Notes: generated from the letters alone by a model not told the origin. Counted from the first letter of the stretch, positions 10,081 through 64,000 are shown. The stretch is 64,000 bases of DNA from Acidobacteriota bacterium (GCA_031361295.1 JANMCN010000229.1:5717-69716), one strand, 5' to 3'. Translations and numbers: made by a program.

Positions 10081-11879
10081 CACACAATCCGATCGGGGTG
10101 TCGTTCGTCATTCCGGTCCTCAACGGCCGCCGCACGCTGCGGTCCGCGCTCGACGCAGTGCTCGGGCAGCGCGACGGCAGGCCCTTCGAGATCATCGTCG
10201 TCGACGATGGCAGCACGGACGGGTCACTCGCGCTGCTGCAGGAGCGCGAAGGGGCCGGTCAGTTGAAGCTGATCCACGGACCCGGCATCGGCACCGCGGC
10301 CGCGATCAATGCCGGCATCCGCGAGGCATCCCACCCGATCGTCTGCCAGGTTGACCAGGACGTCATCGTCCACGCCGGGTGGCTCACGTCGCTGGCGAGC
10401 CGCTTCGCCGATCCCGATATCGCTGCCGCACAAGGACAATACGTGGTCGCAGGCGGAGCGGGGTTCTGGGCACGGGCAATGGGCCGCGACCTCGAACATC
10501 GCTATTTCCGGATGGGCGGCGGTGACGCGGACCACGTCTGCACCGGCAACACCGCCTACCGCGCCACCGCGCTCCACAGCGTGGACCTTCTGGATGAACG
10601 CCTCGGGTACGGATACGACAACGATTTGAGCTACAGGCTGGCGGCGCGGGGACATCGCCTCGTGTACTGCCCGGACGCTCTGAGCACGCATCACTGGCGT
10701 GAAGAGTTCGGGACGTATCTTCGGCAGCAGTTCGGCGTCGGGTACGGGCGTCTCGATGTCGTGGCCCGTCACCCGCTGCGCGTCCGGGGAGACGATGTGT
10801 CGGGGGCCGTCATGATGCTGCATGGTCCGGCCATGCTCCTGGCGTGGCTGCTCATGAGCACGGCCGCTGTCGCCGCGGCCGCCGGTCTCCCGTGGCGGGC
10901 ATCCGCGGAGTCGGCGCTCCTCCTCATCGCGGTCCTCGCGGGCGAGCGGGCGGTCGCGGGTGTCGCAGCCTGGATCCGGACGAAGGACGGCGCAGCGCTC
11001 GGCTTCCCGGTTGCTCACCTTGCGCGCGACTGCGCGTGGGCCGTGGCCATCGTGCTCTGGGGTGCCCGGCTCATCACGCGGCAGCGCCCTGCGCCGTCAC
11101 ACTCGATGCCGCGCCGTTCGGTGGTCGCGCCTCACGCGGCCGCGCGTGCGGCCCGCCACGGCATCCGTCGCGGGTCCCTGCTGGTGGTGGTCCCGGCATT
11201 CAACGAGGCGTCGAATCTCCCACGAGTGGTCTCCGATGTCCGCCGCGCGCTGCCGGAAGCGGACGTGCTGATCGTCAACGATGGTTCGAGCGATGCGACT
11301 GAGAGTCTGCTGCCCAGTCTCGGTGTGCCCTGGCTCACGATGTCGCAGCGGGTGGGCGTCGGCGGAGCGGTGCGCACGGGCATCCGGTACGCGGCGCGGC
11401 GGGGCTATCGATACGTCGTCCGCGTGGACGGAGACGCGCAGCACAGGGCCTGCGACATCGGGCGGTTGCTCGTTCCTGTACTCTCGGGTCACGCGGATGC
11501 GGCCATCGGATCACGATTTCTTGCACGCGGTTCTGGCGGGGGCCTCCGGCGCATGAGCCAGTTGGCGCTCGCCGGGCTGCTGACGCTGCTGACCGGACGA
11601 CGGGTCACCGATCCCACGTCGGGCTTCTGGCTCTTTGGCCCCCGCGCGCTCGCCCTCCTCGCGCGCCATCATCCGGGCGGGTATGCCGAGCCTGAGCTCG
11701 TGCTCCTCCTCAGCCGCAACGGTGTGCGCGTCGTGGAGGTGCCCATCCGCATGAGGCCGAGACTCGCCGGTCGGACCTCGCTGACGGCGCCGCGGGCTCT
11801 CATCGCGCTCGCCCGGACGGTGCTCGCGCTGATCGTCGTCCCATTCAGAGGCACCGTGGAGGGCGAACCGGGTGACTGA
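10077..11879 (+). CDS. fusion of a synthase-like GT2 domain, a TM segment block and a GtrB/ArnC/Dpm1-like GT2 domain
   Basis: Domain 1 reads VSFVIPVLNGRRTL...IIVVDDGSTDGS...VDQDV...RQQFGVGYG. About 4 hydrophobic helices follow. Domain 2 reads LLVVVPAFNEASNL...LIVNDGSSDAT...RVDGDAQH...DPTSGFWLF. The start is the ATG at 10077, which makes an ATGA overlap with the previous stop. The track start is 10008. Confidence 0.8.
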   Translation: MTHNPIGVSFVIPVLNGRRTLRSALDAVLGQRDGRPFEIIVVDDGSTDGSLALLQEREGAGQLKLIHGPGIGTAAAINAGIREASHPIVCQVDQDVIVHAGWLTSLASRFADPDIAAAQGQYVVAGGAGFWARAMGRDLEHRYFRMGGGDADHVCTGNTAYRATALHSVDLLDERLGYGYDNDLSYRLAARGHRLVYCPDALSTHHWREEFGTYLRQQFGVGYGRLDVVARHPLRVRGDDVSGAVMMLHGPAMLLAWLLMSTAAVAAAAGLPWRASAESALLLIAVLAGERAVAGVAAWIRTKDGAALGFPVAHLARDCAWAVAIVLWGARLITRQRPAPSHSMPRRSVVAPHAAARAARHGIRRGSLLVVVPAFNEASNLPRVVSDVRRALPEADVLIVNDGSSDATESLLPSLGVPWLTMSQRVGVGGAVRTGIRYAARRGYRYVVRVDGDAQHRACDIGRLLVPVLSGHADAAIGSRFLARGSGGGLRRMSQLALAGLLTLLTGRRVTDPTSGFWLFGPRALALLARHHPGGYAEPELVLLLSRNGVRVVEVPIRMRPRLAGRTSLTAPRALIALARTVLALIVVPFRGTVEGEPGD

Positions 11880-26650: not shown

Positions 26651-26861
26651 TTGAGCAAGAGCACGGCCATAGCGGTGTTGGCCTCGCGATCGGGCTCGCT
26701 AACCATGGGTAATATCGCGGTTTAGGGCACGGGAACGGATGTCGCGGGAGACGTCGAGATCTGGCCGGTGTGCCGTTTTGGTACCGGCGCTAACAGTTCT
26801 GGCGTCAGGCCCAGACGAGGGCCTGTTCACGGGGGTCGAGGGGGTTCGGCGCGGGACGGAG

Positions 26862-33456: not shown

Positions 33457-33460
33457 TCTC

Positions 33461-33496
33461 CAAAAGACAAGGGTGGTGCCCTTGCGGACACCACCC
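33461..33496 (-). terminator. rho-independent terminator after pilA copy 1
   Basis: The minus strand reads GGGTGGTG-tccgcaaggg-CACCACCC followed by TTGTCTTTTGG. The stems are 33471-33478 and 33489-33496. It begins 23 nt after the pilA stop. Confidence 0.75.
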
Positions 33497-33518
33497 TCGA
33501 GTATGACGCGAACGCGGC

Positions 33519-35076: not shown

Positions 35077-35101
35077 TGTGCCACATCTCTAAAAGCGTGG
35101 A

Positions 35102-35210
35102 TAAATCACTGATGCAAAGTGGTTTAAGGTCCAAGTATACCGTCGGATAGGGGTGACAATAATTGCCGGTAGCCACTTAATGTCACAAGCGCCTCGCCAT
35201 TAAATGTCCC
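35102..35210 (-). promoter_or_regulatory. AT-rich candidate enhancer/UAS region for PilR, with an IHF-like site
   Basis: This is locally the most AT-rich stretch of the window. GTGACA (35153-35158) and TGTCAC (35181-35186) form an inverted pair. TTAATGTCAC and TTAAATGTCCC form direct half-sites. On the minus strand cATCAGtgatTTA (35102-35114) resembles the IHF consensus WATCARnnnnTTR. Confidence 0.35.
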
Positions 35211-35245
35211 GGTAGGGGCGTCCCGGCGACCGCGCCAGCCCCCAG

Positions 35246-38346: not shown

Positions 38347-38353
38347 TCGATTT

Positions 38354-38479
38354 CAGCTGCCAGTTACGAGCTCCCAGCTACCAGCTATAGCTCCCAGCTC
38401 CCAGCTCCCAGCTCCCAGTCACGCCCGGGTCGTTCCAGCTGGAAGCTGGAAGCTGGAAGCTGAAAGCCTGAAGCTAAAA
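38354..38479. repeat. heptad-phased palindromic array, AGCT-core family (pilS | pilC gap)
   Basis: The left arm is cagctgc cagttac gagctcc cagctac cagctat agctccc agctccc agctccc agctccc. The loop is agtcacgcccgggtcgttc. The right arm is cagctgg aagctgg aagctgg aagctga aagcctg aagctaa. Confidence 0.9.
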
Positions 38480-38486
38480 CTCCTGC

Positions 38487-39722: not shown

Positions 39723-39726
39723 AAAT

Positions 39727-39838
39727 CAGCTCACCGTTCCAGCTCACAGCTCACAGCTTCCAGGTCCCAGCTTCCAGCTCCCAGCTGCCAGCTCATGTTG
39801 CACATTGCACATTGCACGTTCCACGCTCCACGTTGCTA
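39727..39838. repeat. one-armed chimeric heptad array of 16 consecutive heptads (pilC | pilT gap)
   Basis: It reads cagctca ccgttcc agctcac agctcac agcttcc aggtccc agcttcc agctccc agctgcc agctcat gttgcac attgcac attgcac gttccac gctccac gttgcta. The first ten heptads are AGCT-type and the last six are (A/G)TTGCAC-type. There is no complementary arm, and the pilT stop lies inside the last heptad. Confidence 0.85.
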
Positions 39839-40969: not shown

Positions 40970-40979
40970 ATTTTTCAAT

Positions 40980-41164
40980 CCCAGCTTCGAGCTTCCGGCT
41001 TCCAGCTTCCAGCTTCCCGGCTTCCAGCTTCCGGCATCCGGCTTCCAGCATCCGGTTTCCAGCTTGCGGCTCGTCTGGAACTCGGCCTCAAGCCATCCCG
41101 CTCCGCTGGGAGCTGGGAGCTGGAAGCTGGAAGCTGGCAGCCGGCAGCTGGAGACTGGAAGCTC
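40980..41164. repeat. heptad-phased palindromic array, AGCT-core family, the largest instance (pilT | pilB gap)
   Basis: The left arm (~12 heptads) is cccagct tcgagct tccggct tccagct tccagct tcccggc ttccagc ttccggc atccggc ttccagc atccggt ttccagc. The loop is ~38 nt. The right arm is ctgggag ctgggag ctggaag ctggaag ctggcag ccggcag ctggaga ctggaag. Confidence 0.9.
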
Positions 41165-41168
41165 GTGC

Positions 41169-47581: not shown

Positions 47582-47616
47582 GCTCGGGACTCGGGGACTG
47601 GAGACTGGGGACTTTG
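47582..47616. repeat. short direct heptad tract (GACTNGG x5) in the permease1 | permease2 gap
   Basis: It reads gctcggg actcggg gactgga gactggg gactttg. I could not see a convincing complementary arm in the rest of the 93-nt gap. Confidence 0.4.
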
Positions 47617-48982: not shown

Positions 48983-49028
48983 CTTCCGGCTACCAGCTTC
49001 CAGCTCGGAGCTCCCGCGCTCGGGCGCC
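48981..49028. repeat. left (pyrimidine-type) AGCT-core heptad arm upstream of the four-helix-bundle gene
   Basis: It reads agcttcc ggctacc agcttcc agctcgg agctccc gcgctcg ggcgcc. Positions 48993-49015 are complementary at 21/23 positions to 49510-49532. Confidence 0.8.
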
Positions 49029-49087: not shown

Positions 49088-49456
49088 ATGCAGGACTATC
49101 GCAACTTGCATGTGTGGCAGAAGGCCCACGCTCTGGCGGTGGCGACGTACGGAATTTCTGCGTACTTACGGCAGGCTGAGGCTTGGCCATTACGCGACCA
49201 GGTGTTTCGTGCCGCTATTTCGATCCCCTCCAACATCGCCGAAGGTGCCGGTAGAGGCTCAGACCTGGACTTCAGGCGGTTTCTCCTTCACTCGTTGGGA
49301 TCCTGCAATGAACTTGAGTATGATTTGCTTCTTGCGCGGGAGTTGGGATTCCTGCCATCTCCCGTCCAGACCAAGCTTGCGGGCGAACTCGAGGAGGTTC
49401 GACGGATGCTCTCCAGCCTCGTCCAGCGTCTGACCCCCCGGAAGCTACGAGTCTGA
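49088..49456 (+). CDS. four-helix-bundle protein (23S rRNA intervening-sequence protein / Avd family)
   Basis: MQDYRNLHVWQKAHALAVATYGISAYL...SIPSNIAEGAGRGSDLDFRRFLLHSLGSCNELEYDLLLAREL is the characteristic family pattern. The start is the ATG at 49088. The track start at 49055 is a TTG. Confidence 0.85.
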   Translation: MQDYRNLHVWQKAHALAVATYGISAYLRQAEAWPLRDQVFRAAISIPSNIAEGAGRGSDLDFRRFLLHSLGSCNELEYDLLLARELGFLPSPVQTKLAGELEEVRRMLSSLVQRLTPRKLRV

Positions 49457-49504: not shown

Positions 49505-49544
49505 CTGCTGGGAGCTGGGAGCTGGAAGCTGGAAGCCCGGAGGG
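49505..49544. repeat. right (purine-type) AGCT-core heptad arm downstream of the four-helix-bundle gene
   Basis: It reads ctgctgg gagctgg gagctgg aagctgg aagcccg gaggg and ends 6 nt before the EF-G-like ATG. Confidence 0.8.
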
Positions 49545-52293: not shown

Positions 52294-52324
52294 GATGTGT
52301 CTGTCCTACGCTAAGTCGGGATTT

Positions 52325-52410
52325 CAGCTCCCGCTGTCCGCTGTCAGTTCCTGGTCTGGGCCCGGCGAACCGGAACAGCAGGAACTGACAGCTGATGGCG
52401 GATCGCTGTG
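52325..52410. repeat. heptad-phased hairpin variant (rplQ | rpoA gap)
   Basis: It reads cagctcc cgctgtc cgctgtc agttcct g ... caggaac tgacagc tgatggc ggatcgc tgtgatc. A perfect 14-bp stem pairs 52340-52353 (gctgtcagttcctg) with 52379-52392 (caggaactgacagc). Confidence 0.7.
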
Positions 52411-52415
52411 ATCTG

Positions 52416-53446: not shown

Positions 53447-53490
53447 CCAGACCTGCCGTTGACGTCCCTCGCCTCCCACCGCAGGTCTGG
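53447..53490. repeat. 10-bp perfect inverted repeat (rpoA | rpsD gap)
   Basis: ccagacctgc (53447-53456) pairs with gcaggtctgg (53481-53490), leaving a 24-nt loop. Confidence 0.6.
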
Positions 53491-53508
53491 AATGGCTGCG
53501 GGCGAAGG

Positions 53509-53580
53509 ACGTGCTACGTGCAACGTGCTGCGTGCGACCTGCAACGTCCTGTTGCACGTCGTACGTTGCACGTAGCACGT
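53509..53580. repeat. heptad-phased palindromic array, ACGT-core variant (rpoA | rpsD gap)
   Basis: It reads acgtgct acgtgca acgtgct gcgtgcg acctgca acgtcct gttgcac gtcgtac gttgcac gtagcac gt. The outer 18 bp are a perfect inverted repeat: acgtgctacgtgcaacgt (53509-53526) with acgttgcacgtagcacgt (53563-53580). Confidence 0.9.
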
Positions 53581-53581
53581 T

Positions 53582-54211: not shown

Positions 54212-54224
54212 TTTGATCCTTGTC

Positions 54225-54360
54225 GCTTCCAGTAACCAGCTTCCAGCTTCCGGCCTTCAGCTTTCCGTCCCAACCGCAACCCGACGCTTCCGCGACTGTC
54301 CCAGGTGATCCTGTCCGACCGTAGCCGGAAGCTGGAAGCTGGAAGCCGGAAGCTGGTTCC
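54225..54360. repeat. heptad-phased palindromic array, AGCT-core family (rpsD | rpsK gap)
   Basis: The left arm gcttccagtaaccagcttccagcttccggccttcagctttcc and the right arm gtagccggaagctggaagctggaagccggaagctggttcc are separated by a ~54-nt loop. The perfect 18-bp core pairs 54236-54253 with 54325-54342. Confidence 0.9.
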
Positions 54361-54816
54361 CTACACTCGTCTCCGCTTCGCCGGGCGGCACCCGTTGTGC
54401 GGAATCGGCGTGACGTCGCGGATCGACTTCACGTCGATCCCGATCGTCTGCAGGGCGCGAATGGCCGACTCGCGGCCTGCGCCAGGCCCCTTGACCCGCA
54501 CCTCGACGCTGCGCATGCCGAACGCCTTGGCGGCGTTGCCGGCCGCAATCGCGGCCTGCGTCGCTGCGAACGGCGTCCCCTTGCGCGAGCCCTTGAAGCC
54601 GATGCCGCCGGCGCTCGACCATGCGACCACGGCCCCCTCGGGATCCGTAATCGTGATGATGGTGTTGTTGAAGGAGGCCTGGATGTGCGCGAACCCGTGG
54701 TGCACGATCCGCTTCTCGCCCCGCTTCTTGAACGCCTTCTTCTTGACGGGCCGACCTGCGCCCTTTTTTCCGCCTTCGGGCGGCGCCGACGCGTCGATGG
54801 TTTCGATTTTGGCCAT
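54361..54816 (-). CDS. rpsK: 30S ribosomal protein S11
   Basis: It reads [27 protein letters not shown]...RPAKRRRV. Confidence 0.97.
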
Positions 54817-54821
54817 AAACT

Positions 54822-54920
54822 CAGCTTCCAGTTTCCAGTTCCCAGCTACCAGCTGGAATGCTCATCCGCTCACATTGCTGCCGTCCGTTCCCAGCTGGAA
54901 GCCGGAAGCCGGAAGCCGAC
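54822..54920. repeat. heptad-phased palindromic array, AGCT-core family (rpsK | rpsM gap)
   Basis: It reads cagcttccagtttccagttcccagctaccagctgg ... ccagctggaagccggaagccggaagccgac. Confidence 0.85.
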
Positions 54921-54926
54921 AGCGGA

Positions 54927-55301
54927 CTACACCGTTTTCTTCTTCGCCACCGCGCCCTTGCGCGGGCCCTTGCGCGTGCGGGCGTTCGTCTTCGTGCGCT
55001 GACCGCGCACCGGCAGGTTCCGGCGGTGCCGCAGCCCGCGGTAGCTGCCGATCTCCATCAGCCGCTTGATGTTGAGCGAGATTTCCTTCCGCAGATCGCC
55101 TTCGACGCGCCCCTGCTCCTCGATCACCCGGCTGATCTTCCGGACGTCGTCTTCCGACAAATCCTTGATGCGGATGTCCGGGCTCACCCCCGCCGCCACC
55201 AGGATGTCGACCGAGCGCTTGCGCCCGATGCCGTAGATGTAAGTGAGCCCGATCTCGATGCGCTTGGCCCTCGGGAGATCGACGCCAGCAATACGTGCCA
55301 T
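54927..55301 (-). CDS. rpsM: 30S ribosomal protein S13
   Basis: It begins [26 protein letters not shown]. Confidence 0.97.
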
Positions 55302-55314
55302 TCTTTGATCCTTG

Positions 55315-55376
55315 TAGCTGCCAGCTGCCAGCTCCCAGCTGCCAGCTGGAAGCCGGAAGCTGGAAGCTGGTAGCTA
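55315..55376. repeat. loop-less heptad palindrome, AGCT-core family (rpsM | rpmJ gap)
   Basis: The left half is tagctgccagctgccagctcccagctgccag and the right half is ctggaagccggaagctggaagctggtagcta. The dyad is at CAGCTG 55343-55348, and 26 of 31 positions are complementary by hand count. The rpmJ stop (TAG) lies inside the terminal heptad. Confidence 0.9.
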
Positions 55377-55487
55377 TCCCTGTCTCTGCTTGTGCTTCTG
55401 GTTCGCGCAAATCACCCGCACCACGCCCTGGCGGCGGACAATTTTGCACTTGTCACAAATCTTCTTCACCGACGCTCGGACCTTCAT
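55374..55487 (-). CDS. rpmJ: 50S ribosomal protein L36
   Basis: It is not in the ORF track because it is too short. My translation is [37 protein letters not shown] (37 aa, stop TAG). It lies at the canonical infA-rpmJ-rpsM position. Confidence 0.93.
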
Positions 55488-55510
55488 ACCCGTTCCTTCT
55501 TCCTGGTCGC

Positions 55511-55744
55511 TCACCGCGACTTGACGACGGCGACAATCCGGCCGCGCGTCAGGTCCCGGGGCGACAGTTCCATCCGCACGCGATCCCCGATCAGCACGCG
55601 GATGAAATTCCGTCCAGCCCCGCCGGGCGCGTGCGCCACGACCTGCCGCTCGTGCTCGATTCCCACCCGGTACAACCCATGGGGCAGGGCGTCGAGCACG
55701 GTGCCTTCGACTGTGACCGCACCGTCGCGCCCGGTCTCAGCCAC
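55511..55744 (-). CDS. infA: translation initiation factor IF-1
   Basis: It reads [59 protein letters not shown]. Confidence 0.95.
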
Positions 55745-55751
55745 CGGAACG

Positions 55752-56515
55752 CTACACCGCGGGCGTCGACACGCTGCGACGGGTGAGCACGAGGGGCCCG
55801 CTCTTCGTGACGGCCACCGTGTGCTCGAAGTGCGCCGACAGGCTGCCGTCCTTCGTGACCGCCGTCCACCCGTCCTGCAGCACCTTCACCGCCGGCCTCC
55901 CGACATTCACCATCGGCTCGATCGCGAGCGTCATGCCTTCCGCGAGCCGCGGTCCGCGTCCGGGCTCGCCGTAGTTCGCGATCTGCGGCTCTTCGTGCAG
56001 CGCCGACCCGATCCCGTGCCCGACGAACTCGCGCACGACGGACAACCCGTGGGCCTCCACGTGCTGCTGGATGGCATGCCCGATGTCGGAGATCCGGCCG
56101 CCCAGCCGGACCTGCTCGATGCCTTTCTCGAGCGACTCGCGCGTGACGCGCAGCAGCGTCGCGGCCTCGTCCGACACCGCGCCGACCGGCACCGTCACGG
56201 CCGAGTCGCCGTAGAAGCCATTCAGCTTCACGCCCATGTCGAGGGAGATGATGTCTCCTTCGACCAGCGCGCGCGCCGACGGGATCCCGTGGACGACCTG
56301 TTCGTTCACGGACGCGCACAGCGTGCAGGGATAGCCGCGATAGCCTTTGAACGCCGGCTCGGCACCGCCGGCCCTCACCAGCTTCTCGGCCGCCAGGTCG
56401 AGATCGAGCGTCGTGACGCCAGGCGCGACCATCGTCGCAAGTTCCGCGAGGACGTCAGCCACGAGCGCGTTCGCAGCGCGCATCCGCTCGATCTCGGTTG
56501 GCGACTTGCACACAA

Positions 56516-56519
<4 letters not shown>
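55752..56519 (-). CDS. map: type I methionine aminopeptidase
   Basis: The GTG at 56519 makes a GTGA overlap with the adk stop and gives VIVCKSPTEIERMRAAN...GDIISLDMGVKLNGFYGDSA...FVGHGIG...EPM...HFEHTV. Track ORF 55752-58154 is this gene artificially extended through adk and secY in another frame. Confidence 0.93.
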
Positions 56520-57205
<686 letters not shown>

Positions 57206-58606
57206 TTACTGGCCCCGCCGCCCACGGATCCGGGTCTTCTTCATGAAGCCGTCGTAGTGCCGCATGATGAGCTGCGACTCGACCTGCTGCACGGTGTCCA
57301 TCGCCACGCCGACGATGATGAGCAGCGACGTGCCCCCCAAGAAGAACGACACCCCCATCCCCTGGGTGATGAACTGCGGCAGCGCCGCATCGAGACGTTC
57401 CCCGATGAACGGAATGGGCGCCACCTTGAACCCGCTGATGAGGAAGGTCGGCAGGATCGCGACCATCGCGAGGTAGATCGCGCCGACGATCGTGATGCGC
57501 GTCAGGATCGTGTCGATGTACTCGGCGGTGCGCTTGCCCGGACGGATCCCCGGGATGAACCCGCCATACTTCCGCATGTTCTCCGCCACGTCGTCCGGGT
57601 TGAAGATGATCGCGGTGTAGAAGTAACAGAAGAAGATGATCCCCACGACGTAGAGCAGGTCGTGCAGCGGCATGCCGGGGGCAATCTGCTCGATCGGCGA
57701 GCGCAGCCAGCCGAAGCGTCCTCCCTCCGTGACGAGCGGCGAGAGCGTGGCCGGGAACGCCAGGATCGACGAGGCGAAGATCACGGGGATGACGCCGCCC
57801 GTGTTGACCTTCAGCGGAATGTGCGTGCTCGATCCGCCGTACATCCTGCGGCCGACGACGCGCTTCGCGTACTGGACCGTGACGCGCCGGTGTCCGCGCT
57901 CGACGAAGACGATCGCCGCGATGACGCCGAACATCAGGACGACGAGCGCGACGAGGCGCAGCAGGCCCATCTGGCCGGTCTTGAGCTGCTCGAGCGTCGA
58001 GATGACCGCGTGCGGCAGGTTGACGACAATGCCGGCGAAGATGATGAGCGACATGCCGTTGCCGATGCCGCGCTCGGTGATCTGTTCGCCGAGCCACATG
58101 ATGAACGTCGTGCCCGTCGTCAGGGTGAGCACCGTCAGCAGCCGGAACGCCCATCCCGGGTTGTAGACGAGGGGGAGGCCTCCCGCGATGCCCGTGTTCC
58201 GCTCGAGAAAATAGGCAATCCCCAGCGCCTGCACGACGCTCAGCAGAATCGTCCCGTAGCGCGTGTACTGCGTGATCTTGCGCCGCCCGAGCTCGCCCTC
58301 CTTCGAGATCCGCTCGAGGTACGGCCAGACGACCGTCAGCAGCTGCAGGATGATCGACGCGCTGATATACGGCATGATGCCGAGCGCGAAGATCGTCATC
58401 TGGGACAGGTTCTTGCCCGAGAACATGTCGTACAGGCCGAACATCGTGTTCTTGGCCTGATCGACCAGCACCGCCAGCGCCGCGGGGTTGATCCCGGGCG
58501 TCGGGATATGGCCGCCGACACGATAGACGGCGAGCAGACCGAGCGTGAAAAACACACGCTTCCGGAGATCCGCGACCGCGAAGATGTTCTTGAGGCTTTC
58601 GAGCAT
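57206..58606 (-). CDS. secY: preprotein translocase subunit SecY
   Basis: This is a 466-aa, 10-TM protein that begins MLESLKNIFAVADLRKRVFFTLGLLAVYRVGGHIPTPG. Confidence 0.97.
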   Translation of the reverse strand: MLESLKNIFAVADLRKRVFFTLGLLAVYRVGGHIPTPGINPAALAVLVDQAKNTMFGLYDMFSGKNLSQMTIFALGIMPYISASIILQLLTVVWPYLERISKEGELGRRKITQYTRYGTILLSVVQALGIAYFLERNTGIAGGLPLVYNPGWAFRLLTVLTLTTGTTFIMWLGEQITERGIGNGMSLIIFAGIVVNLPHAVISTLEQLKTGQMGLLRLVALVVLMFGVIAAIVFVERGHRRVTVQYAKRVVGRRMYGGSSTHIPLKVNTGGVIPVIFASSILAFPATLSPLVTEGGRFGWLRSPIEQIAPGMPLHDLLYVVGIIFFCYFYTAIIFNPDDVAENMRKYGGFIPGIRPGKRTAEYIDTILTRITIVGAIYLAMVAILPTFLISGFKVAPIPFIGERLDAALPQFITQGMGVSFFLGGTSLLIIVGVAMDTVQQVESQLIMRHYDGFMKKTRIRGRRGQ

Positions 58607-58636
58607 GACACCCTTATGACACCGGCTTCCGCCGTG

Positions 58637-59080
58637 TTACGCCAGCACCTCTGCCTTGCCGCCCGCAGCGGCGATCTTCTCCGACGCCGAGCCGCTGAAC
58701 TTGTGCGCGTGGACCGTCAACGCCTTGTTGATCTCGCCACGCCCGAGCACTTTCACGCGCCCGGCGCGCCCGACCAGCCCGCGCTCGCGCAGCAGCTCGA
58801 CCGTCACGTCCGCGCCGGCCTCGAAGCGCTCCTCGAGCGTGTCGAGGTTCACGACCTCGTACTCCTGCCGGAAGATGTTGTTGAAGCCGCGCTTCGGCAC
58901 GCGGCGATGCAGAGGCATCTGGCCGCCTTCGAACCCGCGCTTGTGCGTGAAGCCGGATCGGGACTTCGCCCCCTTGTGCCCGCGGCCCGACTGCACACCC
59001 TGCCCGGACCCCTGCCCGCGGCCGACGCGCTTCTTCGAATGCTTCGCCCCCTTGGGCGGCTTCAGATTTGAGAGATCCAT
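58637..59080 (-). CDS. rplO: 50S ribosomal protein L15
   Basis: It begins [28 protein letters not shown]. Confidence 0.97.
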
Positions 59081-59086
59081 GCGTCC

Positions 59087-59302
59087 CTACTCCTGCACCG
59101 TCACGAGGTGACGGACCTTCAGAATCATGCCGCGCGTCGCGGGGGTGTCGAGGAGCTCGACCGAGTGGCCGATGCGCCGCAGGCCCATGCCCTGCACCGT
59201 CGCCCCCTGGGTGCGATCGAACCCGATCGGGCTCTTCACGAGCGTGATCTTCACCTTCCGGACGTCGCCGCTCTGTGCGGTCTGTGCGCTCTTTTTCGCC
59301 AT
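59087..59302 (-). CDS. rpmD: 50S ribosomal protein L30
   Basis: It reads VKITLVKSPIGFDRTQGATVQGMGLRRIGHSVE. Confidence 0.95.
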   Translation of the reverse strand: MAKKSAQTAQSGDVRKVKITLVKSPIGFDRTQGATVQGMGLRRIGHSVELLDTPATRGMILKVRHLVTVQE

Positions 59303-59305
59303 GGC

Positions 59306-59833
59306 TTACCGGGTCGCCGCGGCGAGATCGCCGGGCTGTTCTTCCTTGCCGCGCAGCTTGCGGACCGCGCCGGGATCTCTGAGGCCCATCAGCCCCGTGA
59401 ACGTCGCCCGCACCACGTTGTGCGAGTTCGCCGAGCCGAGCGACTTGGTGAGCACGTTCGAAATGCCGCACGCCTCGACAACGGCGCGCACGGCCCCTCC
59501 GGCGATGATGCCGGTGCCGTCCGGCGCCGGTTTGAGCAGAACCTGACCGGCGCCAAACCGGCCGAGCACCGGGTGCGGCACGGTCGTGCCGGCCAGGGGC
59601 ACGCGAATGAGCGACTTCTTGGCCGCCTCAATCCCCTTCTTGATCGCCGAGGGAACTTCCTTGGCCTTGCCGACGCCGAAGCCGACGACGCCCTGGCCAT
59701 CGCCGACGACCACGAGCGCGCTGAAACTCAGGTTCTTGCCGCCCTTGACCACCTTGGTGACGCGGCTGATGTTGACCACCGTGTCCTTGAGGTCGAGCTG
59801 CGACGCGTCGATTTTTTCTCGTGTTTCAATCAT
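59306..59833 (-). CDS. rpsE: 30S ribosomal protein S5
   Basis: It reads [46 protein letters not shown]. Confidence 0.97.
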
Positions 59834-59840
59834 AAAAATA

Positions 59841-59919
59841 AGCTTCCAGCTTCCGGCTTCCGGCTTCCAGCTGAGACTCCCGATTGACCCCGGGAGCTGG
59901 CAGCTGGGAGCTGGGAGCT
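59841..59919. repeat. heptad-phased palindromic array, AGCT-core family (rpsE | rplR gap)
   Basis: It reads agcttccagcttccggcttccggcttccagctg, then agactcccgattgacccc, then gggagctggcagctgggagctgggagct. Confidence 0.9.
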
Positions 59920-59923
59920 TGCC

Positions 59924-60298
59924 TTAAAATTCCAACCCCGCCTCGCGCGCGGCTTCCGCCACGGCGCGGATCCGGCCGTGATACAGGAATCCGCCGCGGT
60001 CGAACACGACGCGCTTGATCCCCTTCTCGATGAGCCGCTCCGCGATGGTCTTGCCGAGGGCCTTGGCGCCCGCCACGTTGCCTCCCCGGACCGTGCCCTC
60101 GAAGGCGCTCTTGAGCGCCGGCTCGGTGCTCGCCGCCGACGCGAGCGTCGTCCCGGTCATGTCGTCGATCACCTGCGCGTAAATGTGCGAGACGCTCCGG
60201 AACACCCGAAGCCGGGGGCGCTCGGTGGTTCCGGCAATGCGCTTGCGCTGGCGGAGCGCGATGCGCCGGCGCCGATCCTTGGTCGTGTTGATCTTCAT
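59924..60298 (-). CDS. rplR: 50S ribosomal protein L18
   Basis: The ATG at 60298 gives [43 protein letters not shown]. The track start at 60385 reads through a repeat array. Confidence 0.95.
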
Positions 60299-60300
60299 AT

Positions 60301-60383
60301 CTGCTACCAGCTTCCGGCTACCAGTTTCCAGTGCTCCCTGAATCAGTTTCCAGCTGGAAGCTGGAAGCTGGAAGCTGGAAGCC
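60301..60383. repeat. heptad-phased palindromic array, AGCT-core family (rplR | rplF gap)
   Basis: It reads ctgctaccagcttccggctaccagtttccag ... cagctggaagctggaagctggaagctggaagcc. Confidence 0.9.
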
Positions 60384-60388
60384 AAATG

Positions 60389-60928
60389 TCACTTCGCCCC
60401 CGTCTTGCCCGCCTTCTTCTTCAGCACTTCGCCCGTGTAACGCACGCCCTTCTGCTTGTACGGGTCCGGCTTGCGCAGGCGGCGGATATTCGCGGCGACC
60501 TGGCCGACGGCCTGGCGGTCGATGCCCGTCACGGTGATGTGCGTCTGCTTGTCGATCGCGACGTCGATGCCCGGCGGTATGTCGAAGACCACGATGTGCG
60601 AATAGCCGAGGGCGAAGATGACCTGCTTGCCCTTGAGCTCCGCGCGGTAGCCGACGCCGACGATGTCGAGATCCTTCCGGAAGCCCTCGGTGACGCCGCG
60701 CACGGCGTTCGCGACGAGGCTGCGGGCCAGCCCGTGGAACTTGCCGAGCTCGGGATCCTCGCGCAGCGTCCGCGCATGGAGGTGATCGCCGTCCACTTCG
60801 AACCCGATGCCCGCCGGCAGCGCCTGGCGCAGCTTCCCCTTGGGGCCCTGCACTTCGACCACACCCGGCTGCACGTCAATCTTGACGCCCTTCGGGATGG
60901 GGATGAACTTCTTGCCAATTCGCGACAT
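60389..60928 (-). CDS. rplF: 50S ribosomal protein L6
   Basis: It begins [33 protein letters not shown]. Confidence 0.97.
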
Positions 60929-60934
60929 GGTTAT

Positions 60935-61048
60935 CAGCTTCCAGCTTCCAGCTGCCAGCTCCCAGCCAACAGCTTCAATATCCCGCTGCCCGCGCCTCCT
61001 GGCCCCCAGTCTCCCGTCGCTGGAAGCTGGCAGCCGGAAGCTGGTAGC
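60935..61048. repeat. heptad-phased palindromic array, AGCT-core family (rplF | rpsH gap)
   Basis: It reads cagcttccagcttccagctgccagctcccagccaacagcttc ... gctggaagctggcagccggaagctggtagc. Confidence 0.9.
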
Positions 61049-61054
61049 GTCATC

Positions 61055-61459
61055 TCACCACACATTACAGAGCACTTCACCGCCGACGCCCGCTTTGACC
61101 GCTTCGCGTCCGGTCATCACGCCGCGCGAGGTGGTGAGGATGCTGACGCCCAGCCCCGCGAGCACATCCGGCACGTCGTCGCGCCCGAAGTACACCCGGC
61201 GCCCGGGCCGGCTGACGCGCTGGATTCCGGTAATCACGCGCTCGCCGCGCGGCCCGTACTTGAGGAACATCTTGAGCTGCGCCTGGACCCGTTCGCCCGC
61301 CGCCGCCTCGAGGACCTTGAAGCCCTGGATGTAGCCTTCGCTCTCGAGGATGCGCGCAATCTCGACCTTGAGGCGCGACGACGGCATCTCGACCCGCGCG
61401 TGATGGGCAATCGTCGCGTTCCGGATCCGCGCGAGCATGTCTGCAATTGGATCTGTCAT
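61055..61459 (-). CDS. rpsH: 30S ribosomal protein S8
   Basis: It begins MTDPIADMLARIRNATIAHHARVEMPSS. Confidence 0.97.
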   Translation of the reverse strand: MTDPIADMLARIRNATIAHHARVEMPSSRLKVEIARILESEGYIQGFKVLEAAAGERVQAQLKMFLKYGPRGERVITGIQRVSRPGRRVYFGRDDVPDVLAGLGVSILTTSRGVMTGREAVKAGVGGEVLCNVW

Positions 61460-61476
61460 ATTTCTCGGCTCTCAAT

Positions 61477-61556
61477 AGCTTCCAGTTTCCAGCTTCCAGC
61501 TTCCAGCCCTGTGATTCAGCGTTCCGCCGGTGGCCGGACGCTGGGAGCTGGGAGCT
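61477..61556. repeat. heptad-phased palindromic array, AGCT-core family (rpsH | rpsN gap)
   Basis: It reads agcttccagtttccagcttccagcttccagcc ... ctgggagctgggagct. Confidence 0.85.
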
Positions 61557-61559
61557 GTC

Positions 61560-61745
61560 TCACCACGAACTCTTCGTCACGCCCGCGATGTCGCCGTCGA
61601 GCGCCAGCTTGCGGAAGCAGAGGCGGCAGAGGGCGAACTTCCGCAGGTAGGCACGGGGACGGCCGCAGCGGTGGCAACGGTTCCGCAGCCGGACCTTGAA
61701 CTTCGGCGTCTTGGCTTCCTTGGCGATTTTTGCAGTCGTGGCCAT
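61560..61745 (-). CDS. rpsN: 30S ribosomal protein S14, type Z (zinc-binding, 61 aa)
   Basis: It reads [34 protein letters not shown]...KSSW. Confidence 0.95.
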
Positions 61746-61758
61746 CGTGATTCGTTCC

Positions 61759-62301
61759 TTACGCGGTCCTGAACGGCATGCCGAGCAGCTGCAGGAGCTT
61801 GCGCGATTCTTCGTCTGATTTCGCGGTCGTCACGACCGAAATGTTCATGCCGCGCGCCTTGTCGACCTTCATGTAGTCGATCTCGGGAAACAGCAGCTGG
61901 TCCTTCAACCCGAGCGTATAGTTGCCGCGGCCGTCGAACCCCTTCGCGGAGACGCCGCGGAAGTCGCGGACGCGGGGGAGCGCGACGGAGATCAGCCGGT
62001 CCAGGAAGTCCCACATGCGATCGCCGCGCAGCGTCACCATGGAGCCAATCGGCATGCCCTGGCGCACCTTGAACTGCGCGATCGACTTCTTGGCGCGCGT
62101 GGCCACCGGCTTCTGTCCCGTGATCCGCGCCACTTCGTCGGCCCCCGTGTCGACGATCTTCGCGTTCTGGGTCGCTTCGCCGAGCCCCATGTTCACGACG
62201 ATCTTCTCGATCTTCGGGATCGCCATCACGTTCGAATAGCCGAACTCCTTCTTCAAGGCCGGCGCGACTTCCTTGTCGTAGCGTTCCTTCAAGCGGCTCA
62301 T
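61759..62301 (-). CDS. rplE: 50S ribosomal protein L5
   Basis: The ATG at 62301 makes an ATGA overlap with the rplX stop and gives [39 protein letters not shown]. The track start at 62685 is over-extended. Confidence 0.95.
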
Positions 62302-62630
62302 TTGTCGACCACTCCCTCGCACTTGCGGCAGACCCGGACTTTCCGCCCGTCGCCGAGGATCTTCTTGCCGACCCGCGTCGGCTTCCCGCACTCGGGACAT
62401 ACGATCTGCACGTTCGACGCGTGCAGGGCCGCCTCGCGCTCCACGACGCCGCCCTTGATTCCGCGCTGCGGATTGGGCTTCGTGTGGCGCTTGATCACGT
62501 TCACGCCTTCGACGATGAGGCGGTTGTTGTCCGGCACGACCTTCAGCACGCGCCCGCGCTTGCCGCGATCCTTGCCGGTAATCACGACCACGCTGTCGTT
62601 CTTCCGAATCGGAGTTGCTAGTCTTGACAT
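62298..62630 (-). CDS. rplX: 50S ribosomal protein L24
   Basis: It reads [24 protein letters not shown] (KOW motif). Confidence 0.95.
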
Positions 62631-62636
62631 AACCCT

Positions 62637-62738
62637 TCAGCTTCCCGCTTCCAGCTTCCAGCTTCCCGCTTCCGGCTTCCAGCAAACCCTTGCTTCCTGC
62701 GTTTCCGGGCCGGGAGCTGGGAGCTGGGAGCTGGGAGG
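62637..62738. repeat. heptad-phased palindromic array, AGCT-core family (rplX | rplN gap)
   Basis: It reads tcagcttcccgcttccagcttccagcttcccgcttccggcttccagc ... cgggagctgggagctgggagctgggagg. Confidence 0.9.
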
Positions 62739-62741
62739 TGT

Positions 62742-63980: not shown

Positions 63981-64000
63981 AATTTGATCCTTGTAGCTGC

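Follow-up and report, generated by a model that had tools for sequence, protein, structure and literature searches.

The window analysed here comprises 64,000 nt of DNA from a soil Acidobacteriota bacterium with a G+C content of 66.7% and contains on its minus strand, between 51.6 and 64 kb, the rplP...rplQ cluster of ribosomal-protein genes. The junctions within this cluster can be divided, as proposed by an earlier note made from the sequence, into a tight class of -4 to 30 nt and a long class of 72-182 nt. Each of the eight gaps located within 54212-62741 (72-149 nt) consists of a run of CCAGCTY-type heptads that is followed by a complementary run of the type RAGCTGG, and such hairpins occupy ten consecutive long spacers of the operon. 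The arrays of this minus-strand cluster are as follows, with the minimum free energy (MFE) of the sense strand in kcal/mol and the z-score of folding against mononucleotide shuffles:

52294-52415, rpoA/rplQ gap: imperfect hairpin, weakly heptad-phased (CCGCTGT); MFE -55.3, z -6.7
53509-53581, rpsD/rpoA gap: heptad hairpin with another unit, ACGTGCA x5.6 / GTTGCAC x4.4
54212-54360, rpsK/rpsD gap: arms 54225-54263 (GCTTCCA x5.6) and 54323-54356 (AGCTGGA x4.9), loop of ~60 nt; sense MFE -76.1, z -5.6, tails of 1 and 3 nt
54817-54926, rpsM/rpsK gap: arms 54822-54854 and 54893-54918 (AGCCGGA variant); MFE -50.4
55302-55373, rpmJ/rpsM gap: hairpin almost without a loop, formed by arms 55316-55348 and 55344-55375; complementarity of 26/31 around CAGCTG
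59834-59923, rplR/rpsE gap: arms 59841-59872 and 59892-59919; MFE -45.5
60299-60388, rplF/rplR gap: arms 60303-60329 and 60352-60382 (AGCTGGA x4.4, perfect)
60929-61054, rpsH/rplF gap: arms 60935-60974 and 61022-61048; MFE -77.4, z -7.7
61460-61559, rpsN/rpsH gap: arms 61477-61507 and 61540-61557
62631-62741, rplN/rplX gap: arms 62638-62683 (which also show a 21-nt super-period) and 62712-62737
63981-64000, array start upstream of rplP, truncated at the window edge: lead-in ...GATCCTTGTAGCTGC shared with the array at 55302

All eight arrays within 54212-62741 were found where the earlier note had placed them. The same holds for its variants at 52325-52410 and 53509-53581 and for the array that begins at the right edge (63981-64000), and the complementarity given for 55315-55376 proved exact.

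Tandem arrays were detected with Tandem Repeats Finder (TRF) and counted when they comprised at least 3.5 copies. A period of 7 was obtained for 24 of 24 such arrays in the window, all of which are located in non-coding gaps between open reading frames (ORFs) with a coding-type G+C content at third codon positions (GC3), so that both the 7-nt phasing claimed beforehand and a placement outside coding sequence hold for the entire set. The gene caller was a simple GC3-based one that missed several genes and served only for listing the gaps. The hexamer clusters were scored against Markov shuffles, and 12 clusters of at least three CCAGCT/AGCTGG hexamers were counted in the window versus 0.18 expected. 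The unit consensus of the window is (A77%/G18%)GCT(T60%/C24%)CC, with AGCTTCC, ACGTGCA, GTTGCAC, CTCGGGA and CCGCTGT as the units that occur side by side in the window; in the matrix (A/G)GCT(T/C)CC neither G nor C stands three or more times in a row, and it offers no G-tracts for G-quadruplexes. Folding of 13 gaps of the window yielded sense-strand MFE values of -40 to -115 kcal/mol and z-scores of -3.5 to -8.8 in 12 of them. The main stem, comprising 16-37 pairs of which ~85% are Watson-Crick, begins 0-6 nt past the stop codon and mostly ends 3-14 nt ahead of the next start codon; the long intercistronic gaps are thus filled by imperfect hairpins, as had been claimed.

The super-period of 21 nt, corresponding to three heptads or about two turns of B-DNA, was reported by TRF at 62638-62683, 39727-39795, 55316-55374 and 53510-53551, with up to 96% matches. 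The rplR/rpsE hairpin at 59834-59923 is followed on the sense strand by UUAUUUUU immediately 5' of the rpsE start codon; it is the sole array of the window that resembles an intrinsic terminator or attenuator, and it was not flagged by a simple terminator scan.

To place these arrays in an evolutionary context, 80 orthologous operons were collected by a SecY-based scan of metagenome contigs (SecY 58-89% identical), 23 genes were mapped in each of them and every gap was measured. The period was examined in 228 gaps of at least 40 nt from 83 related operons, including the window and its two nearest relatives. In these gaps, recurrences of 4-mers numbered 1289 at lag 7 (922 without the window and the two nearest relatives) and 895 at lag 14, compared with 75-256 at other lags that are not multiples of seven, and the coding sequence of secY, used as a control, showed a 3-nt periodicity only. 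Likewise, TRF identified 75 arrays with period 7 in the SecY-selected loci versus 15, 21 and 13 with periods 6, 8 and 9, respectively. Among 88 arrays of the related operons there are 61 distinct units, including AACTGAR, GTCGCTA, GCCTGAT, GGGATTG, AGTCAGG, TAGTTGT, CGATTTG and GGGGCCG, which vary by locus and by gap. In most of these arrays an arm is accompanied by its complement; a few (rpsH/rplF of locus L137, and L155) have a single arm and do not fold. The composition of the 88 units of loci L133-L212 is biased: CTG/CAG (55 vs 22 expected) and TGA/TCA (45 vs 20) are enriched, whereas ATG/CAT (5 vs 16) and GTA/TAC (1 vs 17) are depleted. The AGCT core emphasised in the earlier note is therefore incidental, given that about 60 other heptads of identical period are in use among the relatives and that outside the arrays AGCT shows neither avoidance nor enrichment.

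The nucleotide sequence of the window is 86% identical to that of the metagenome-assembled genome (MAG) MSU bin101 and 83% to that of MFD06742.bin.2.107, both from Acidobacteriota, and 71% to a Vicinamibacterales MAG, which places the window in the Acidobacteriota. Array positions are retained among relatives down to ~83% nucleotide identity, and at SecY identities of 85% or less the long gaps are found at different junctions. In loci L121 and L122 (SecY 98% identical) arrays occupy the same junctions with other copy numbers and even other units; at rpsD/rpoA, for instance, L121 has GAAGCCG/AGCTGAR and L047 has AGCTTCC where the window has ACGTGCA. Similarly, loci L054, L047 and L033, whose ribosomal proteins are 93-99% identical, have kept the junctions with remodelled arms and loops, and the rpsH/rplF array of L033 has been rebuilt from GAATGCT. 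Heptads are also present in the convergent gap fusA|rplQ of L121. The retention of junctions along with changed units, copy numbers and loops supports expansion in place, as the earlier note had suspected, and counts against the spread of a transposed master copy. Accordingly, period and dyad symmetry persist while the sequence does not.

Two features of other kinds were noted in the same operons. A non-heptad hairpin, CAGACCTGC...GCAGGTCTG, is located at 53447-53491 in the rpsD-rpoA spacer, ~50-90 nt upstream of rpoA; it is present with a variable loop in seven relatives (L047, L121, L122, L136, L146, L148 and L152; SecY 74-98% identical) and may serve the alpha operon in regulation or processing. 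The map/infA gap of L047 measures 104 nt versus 7 nt in the window and contains three tandem motifs of ~33 nt with the small hairpin GTCCGGCTTTAGCCGGAC.

The arrays had been regarded as a feature of the spc/alpha operon, a view that turned out to be too narrow, as the pilus operon and the flanks of a PF05635 gene carry them as well. The following features are located outside 54212-62741:

38347-38486, pilC/pilS gap: arms 38354-38418 and 38437-38475
39723-39835, pilT/pilC gap: two distinct one-directional arrays, CCAGCTC x8 and GTTGCAC x5.7; no good hairpin, z -0.7
40970-41168, pilB/pilT gap: longest hairpin of the window, arms 40981-41065 (x12) and 41105-41163 (x8.4); MFE -115, z -8.8
47583-47613, gap between two MacB/FtsX-type permease genes: CTCGGGA x4.3 array
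48983-49015, left heptad arm upstream of the PF05635 gene: AGCTTCC type
49088-49456, plus strand, PF05635 gene (23S rRNA intervening-sequence/four-helix-bundle, Avd-like), 122 aa, E-value 3e-31: in the loop between the arms
49507-49537, right heptad arm downstream of the PF05635 gene: GCTGGAA x4.3

The pilB/pilT gap of 199 nt in the window is reduced to 112 nt in L121. All arrays of the window are confined to co-directional gaps inside operons, and heptads are absent from the promoter- or terminator-like short spacers at 1156-1269, 26651-26861, 33457-33518 and 35085-35245.

Several general candidates were rejected. A restriction-modification or methylation signature of AGCT was dismissed, as the observed/expected ratio outside the arrays is 1.16 for AGCT and 0.85 for CAGCTG. 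The arrays were rejected as intrinsic terminators (10 terminator-like sites vs 7.6 expected, none inside an array) and as promoters (1 promoter-like site vs 1.1 expected). A phage origin was discarded with only 10 exact matches in 2.9 million viral contigs. Rfam 15 at gathering threshold gave no match across the 64-kb window, rRNA included, and a scan of the window for tRNA and tmRNA detected none.

An exact-pattern scan for AGCTGGR arrays in one genome per species, from which 120 loci were selected, located such arrays in many phyla. The form of a hairpin within an operon was seen in Acidobacteriota, one case being the ATP synthase operon of L004, and the arrays of Halomonas, Pseudomonas and flavobacteria are mostly one-directional microsatellites. 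PF05635 proteins are encoded by 6 of the 120 loci, and arrays directly flank four of these six genes, in Vicinamibacterales, Anaerolineae, Luteolibacter and a MAG labelled Flavobacteriales. Since selection by pattern biases towards arrays, loci were sampled via the protein itself.

The flanks of the PF05635 gene of the window reach a complementarity of 20.5 versus a shuffle maximum of 10. Avd, which its product resembles, is a pentameric nucleic-acid-binding barrel. No exact-sequence record was found for the window protein, and the synteny macB-IVP-fusA (IVP denoting the PF05635 gene) is conserved in relatives. Orthologues are likewise enclosed by arms, which consist of CTCTCAG/AGCTGAG where the identity is 55% and of 17 AGCTTCC/CGCTTCC units where it is 71%. 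The PF05635 gene was also considered as a multi-copy element that jumps within this lineage, but this was rejected, as the 11 P0099 contigs represent the same syntenic locus in different samples. A profile search for distant PF05635 relatives returned mostly the same clade, with new contexts only in P0127, P0129 and P0138. At the pyrG-IVP-TonB-receptor locus (L213-L224), 170-670 nt of heptads that vary between samples are located on both sides of the gene. The PF05635 flanks of L213-L215 and L224 additionally carry a second array type, GGCTGGTGGCCTGT..., with repeated GCTGGTGG, which we take to be the Chi octamer of E. coli and which is probably coincidental.

A tblastn search against 72,556 PLSDB plasmids resulted in 21 records, 18 of them cyanobacterial, including 15 from Nostoc, Calothrix, Anabaena and Aulosira. 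Short-period flanking arrays, mostly inverted, were present in 12 of the 12 plasmid loci read (11 plasmid-borne genes and one 23S rRNA intervening sequence, IVS), with period 7 in 10 and period 8 in two (Gemmatirosa and Picosynechococcus). Arm complementarity was above all 100 shuffles in 5 of these 12 loci, and flank complementarity was so in 12 of 18 PF05635 loci overall. In Nostoc edaphicum, (GTAGGGA)x8 ... (TCCCTAC)x5 surround a PF05635 gene between nrdB and nrdA, and in Anabaena sp. 90, (GGTGACA GGGAACA)x20 ... (TGTCACC)x4 are located between cas6 and cas4, where period 14 is seen. The period-8 arms are GGGCAGGA/CTCCTGCC in Gemmatirosa (L231; 560-700 and 1046-1080) and GGAGATAA/TCTCCTAA in Picosynechococcus (L228; 657-691 and 1049-1084). 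The locus on the Azospirillum lipoferum plasmid AZO_p2 (L232) is a classical 23S rRNA IVS with a PF05635 ORF (Rfam LSU, 1108 bits), and its stem at 640-700 / 1060-1100 is heptad-phased, with CAGAGGA CGGATGA CAGAGGA CGGAGGA versus CCGTCCT CTGTCTT CTGTCAT CCGTCTT. The replicon background is low, at ~7-20% of gaps: arrays are contained in 3 of ~46 gaps of pANA02, two of which are IVP flanks, and in ~20% of the gaps of pNe_5. In most loci the PF05635 gene is co-directional with its neighbours, and in at least four it occupies the opposite strand, which argues for a strand-symmetric relationship at the DNA level.

Some further observations relate to these plasmid loci. In L225-L236, PF05635 genes are wedged within functional operons, namely cas6/cas4 (twice), cmr2/cmr3, nrdB/nrdA, hlyD-like/ABC transporter and parA-like/parB, and several of them run antisense to the operon. 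The N. edaphicum plasmid pNe_5 contains three period-8 arrays among period-7 ones. A near-identical AGTCAGG/AGTCAGA arm is shared by L202, a metagenome contig related through SecY, and plasmids of Nostoc and Aulosira. In Anabaena sp. 90 pANA02 (L237), a 9-nt tandem array, TTCATCCTG x4.4, is located at 10137-10176 between a reverse transcriptase gene and a bona fide avd gene of a diversity-generating retroelement.

The closest solved structure to the PF05635 protein of the window is XCC0516 of Xanthomonas campestris (2GSC), and GGGAATC repeat #15 of that species lies between accB and XCC0516 and overlaps the XCC0516 start codon (PMC4692102). PF05635 itself has been identified as the Avd family that belongs to diversity-generating retroelements (PMC10053308). 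Phyla in which PF05635 genes were found between short-period arms include Acidobacteriota, Chloroflexota, Verrucomicrobiota, Cyanobacteriota and Gemmatimonadota, in addition to the MAG labelled Flavobacteriales and, according to published tables, Xanthomonas. No paper generalising the link between PF05635 and heptad hairpins was found in the literature searched; the link appears not to have been generalised before, and this result may be new.

Heptanucleotide repeats of heterocystous cyanobacteria, the short tandemly repeated repetitive (STRR) sequences, were reportedly described by Mazel et al. in 1990. The window arrays share with them the period of 7, the presence of several unit types per genome, an intergenic and in part intra-operon location and a variable copy number, but STRR units are AT-richer and come from a different phylum; neither the units nor the taxon of the window correspond to STRR1-3 in the strict sense. 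Among the known examples cited by a later study are GGGGAYT arrays of Nostoc, one of them between pecE and pecF in Nostoc PCC 7120, and three heptanucleotides of Calothrix PCC 7601 (PMC4692102, as cited there). According to the same account, heptameric simple sequence repeats (SSRs) were reported in 2007 as over-represented in many bacterial genomes and in their intergenic DNA, with polymerase-footprint slippage as the proposed cause, and "no detailed literature" has followed that report (PMC4692102). A close counterpart is found in X. campestris and X. axonopodis, likewise high-GC genomes with intergenic heptamers (2-26 units) in convergent pairs (Rehm et al. 2015, PMC4692102). Each Xanthomonas genome contains 183-186 GGGAATC arrays and 70-75 convergent pairs able to form stem-loops; the arrays occur at the same gene pairs in two species with extensive variation in length and sequence, most are transcribed, and they adjoin housekeeping genes such as groES, dnaE and pilU as well as the PF05635 gene XCC0516 (PMC4692102). 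In contrast to the AGCTTCC/GGAAGCT unit of the window, which lacks G-tracts, that of Xanthomonas is rich in G and in vitro gives rise to G-quadruplexes (PMC4692102). The window arms, unlike those of Xanthomonas, usually fill the whole intercistronic gap, and they belong to another taxon, the Acidobacteriota.

In Geobacter metallireducens, GGGACCG x4 is present in 49 copies and MTYCTGA x5 at 15 sites (PMC2700814). These elements resemble the window arrays as multi-copy, mostly intergenic tandem heptamers, some of them drawn as strand-switching, hairpin-like sites, but they are short (4-5 units), lie within genes in some cases and have been read as regulatory RNAs or as sites at which regulators bind (PMC2700814). 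The segment 48983-49537, with its inverted heptad arms enclosing a PF05635 ORF, corresponds in architecture to the ORF-bearing 23S IVSs of Azospirillum and Coxiella burnetii. In the latter, 2-3 GACAGAT heptamers, which vary between strains, precede the S23p (PF05635) ORF, and the IVS is cleaved by RNase III at the first heptamer, within a 28-bp stem (PMC4990558). IVSs differ from the window elements in that they replace an rRNA helix and that their excision by RNase III was demonstrated experimentally (PMC4990558), whereas the window elements, known here from sequence alone, lie in mRNA spacers and mostly lack an ORF.

Repetitive extragenic palindromic (REP) sequences and bacterial interspersed mosaic elements (BIMEs) of enterobacteria and pseudomonads are often intra-operon, palindromic and transcribed in mRNAs, for which they were reported to act as stabilisers. 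The window arrays are likewise intergenic and palindromic, but REPs have no internal tandem heptads, and the arrays are free in sequence and fixed in period. REPs are units of 20-40 nt that are conserved in sequence and bear a GTAG/CGTC head (PMC3733652), and the REP-associated TnpA_REP is the transposase proposed to mobilise them (PMC8266576). Neither this head nor any conserved unit beyond the heptad was found in the window arrays. The features of MITEs (miniature transposable elements with inverted repeats) were not found either: arm lengths are variable, the loops are mutually unrelated and no duplications are visible at the array ends. By comparison, the arrays combine all properties of the heptameric SSR or STRR type, i.e. 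a tandem 7-nt unit, a non-coding location, several units and polymorphism between close relatives, and they share with those of Xanthomonas the convergent stem-loop-forming pairs, seen in the 12 of 13 gaps with z of -3.5 or below, though not the G-tracts. They are an Acidobacteriota (Vicinamibacterales-like) member of a known but neglected class of heptamer repeats and not of a new kind. The earlier note had been aware of no described family that combines heptad repeats with palindromes in a high-GC genome; the GGGAATC pairs of Xanthomonas (PMC4692102) and the stem-region heptamers of the Coxiella 23S IVS (PMC4990558) contradict this view.

Regarding the origin of the hairpins, one explanation is that they are selected mRNA elements serving as RNase III sites, stabilisers or devices of translational coupling or insulation that tune the relative output of neighbouring cistrons. 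The precise position of strong stems between stop codon and ribosome-binding site, the Shine-Dalgarno-like GGAAG/GGAG motifs in the final heptads of the 3' arm, the restriction of the window arrays to co-directional operon gaps with array-free promoter- or terminator-like spacers, the conservation of array positions down to ~83% nucleotide identity and the identical architecture of the Coxiella IVS stem, an RNase III substrate, are in accord with it. If pairing of the sense RNA were maintained, G:U mismatches would be expected to dominate, but the best ungapped stems of ~45 hairpins comprise 942 Watson-Crick pairs, 42 G:U, 60 A:C and 71 transversion mismatches, a count that is confined to ungapped stems and of modest power. 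The sense fold is the more stable one in 33 gaps and the antisense fold in 23 (Wilcoxon p = 0.13; 4 to 5 in the gaps of the window), i.e. both strands fold with equal stability. Neither the G:U versus A:C test nor the sense/antisense MFE test thus revealed a signature of selection on the sense RNA. Array-bearing junctions moreover vary by lineage, units and loops are swapped freely, some arrays are unfolded and L121 carries heptads in a convergent gap, all of which makes selected RNA elements unlikely. Miniature transposable elements of the REP/BIME or MITE type, mobilised by a transposase encoded elsewhere, might account for intergenic, palindromic sequences that are multi-copy in one genome and share a predominant unit. 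The arrays, however, are devoid of conserved termini, target-site duplications, a fixed length and a visible GTAG/CGTC-type head, heptad number and spacer letters differ in every copy, and orthologous sites change in place, with unrelated units of the same period in relatives; transposition is accordingly highly improbable and already largely refuted. The strand symmetry of mismatches and folding energies indicates instead that the palindromes look made on DNA rather than selected as sense RNA. We therefore favour, with a probability of roughly 60%, the interpretation that the arrays are heptanucleotide simple-sequence-repeat hairpins, made and remodelled in place on DNA and with little selected function. 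Slippage by 7 bases would lengthen and shorten each arm, arm-to-arm copying across the palindrome by intrastrand template switching would preserve complementarity, and survival would be limited to non-coding spacers. Coupled operons would tolerate only inserts whose stem closes the entire gap, because the stem base would then keep the stop codon of the upstream gene next to the ribosome-binding site of the downstream one. The polycistronic mRNA would form imperfect duplexes of 25-45 bp at the arrays; as these stems resemble the duplexes cut in IVSs, RNase III probably cuts them once transcribed, or they may act as passive structural punctuation, so that the operon mRNA would probably be segmented or punctuated there. 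The influence of the arrays on expression is most likely slight or neutral, with no selected regulatory code.

Several points weigh against such an origin by slippage and copying on DNA. The sharp preference for 7 nt, occasionally 8, fits no known slippage mechanism; the units are non-random, enriched in CTG/CAG and TGA/TCA and depleted of ATG/CAT, which hints at selection or at a sequence-specific factor; the one-armed, unfolded arrays (39723-39835, rpsH/rplF of L137, and L155) demonstrate that pairing is not obligatory; and plain slippage does not predict the tight link to PF05635. That link underlies the rather unlikely view that an Avd-like protein recognises, generates or mobilises heptad hairpins, the ORF-less hairpins of operons being non-autonomous copies or binding sites. 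It is consistent with the window's own gene between complementary arms and with orthologues that at 55-71% identity retain arms built from other units, with the short-period arrays at all 12 plasmid loci, above replicon background, and with the comparable loci in Anaerolineae, Luteolibacter and the MAG labelled Flavobacteriales. The GGGAATC repeat #15 adjoining XCC0516 (PDB 2GSC), the heptamers in the 23S IVSs of Coxiella and Azospirillum and the cyanobacterial origin of 18 of the 21 plasmid matches, 15 of them from STRR-rich genera, point in the same direction. Association is not causation, however, and a small gene lodged in operon spacers would have on its flanks whatever fills them. In addition, the gene is syntenic in this lineage and not jumping, over 15 arrays share the 64 kb with a single PF05635 gene, the array-bearing 80 ribosomal loci lack a PF05635 gene in their vicinity, the flanking arrays are direct and not inverted in two loci (L100/L213 and L226), and the family has no known biochemical activity on repeats. 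A broader version can be put forward tentatively, as a possibility well short of an even chance: heptad hairpins and PF05635 proteins might constitute one widespread system, in which the gene is the cargo of a hairpin element colonising transcribed spacers (rRNA helices and intercistronic gaps) across many phyla, the protein recognises or helps to generate the 7-nt (rarely 8-nt) arms, and ORF-less arrays, among them STRR, the GGGAATC arrays of Xanthomonas and the AGCTTCC arrays of the ribosomal operon described here, are derivatives or targets. None of these readings accounts for the preference for 7, the CTG/TGA-rich and ATG-poor units, the occasional period of 8 and the PF05635 link.

Bacterial heptamer repeats have been on record since 1990, and we know of no reason for their 7-nt period and of no function assigned to them. 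The locus described here represents an extreme form in a new phylum, in which the long spacers of the most conserved operon of bacteria are filled. Its interest lies in the completeness with which a core operon is occupied, in the conservation of period and not of sequence, and in the association with PF05635 across phyla. If the arrays are merely tolerated mutational debris, they would still be assembly-breaking, fast-evolving strain markers and would call for caution in the discovery of RNA motifs in Acidobacteriota. If the PF05635 link is true, it would join STRR-type repeats, the intervening sequences of 23S rRNA and a large Avd-like family of unassigned role, and a single system of this kind would explain the origin of bacterial heptamer repeats as well as the role of the IVS ORF.

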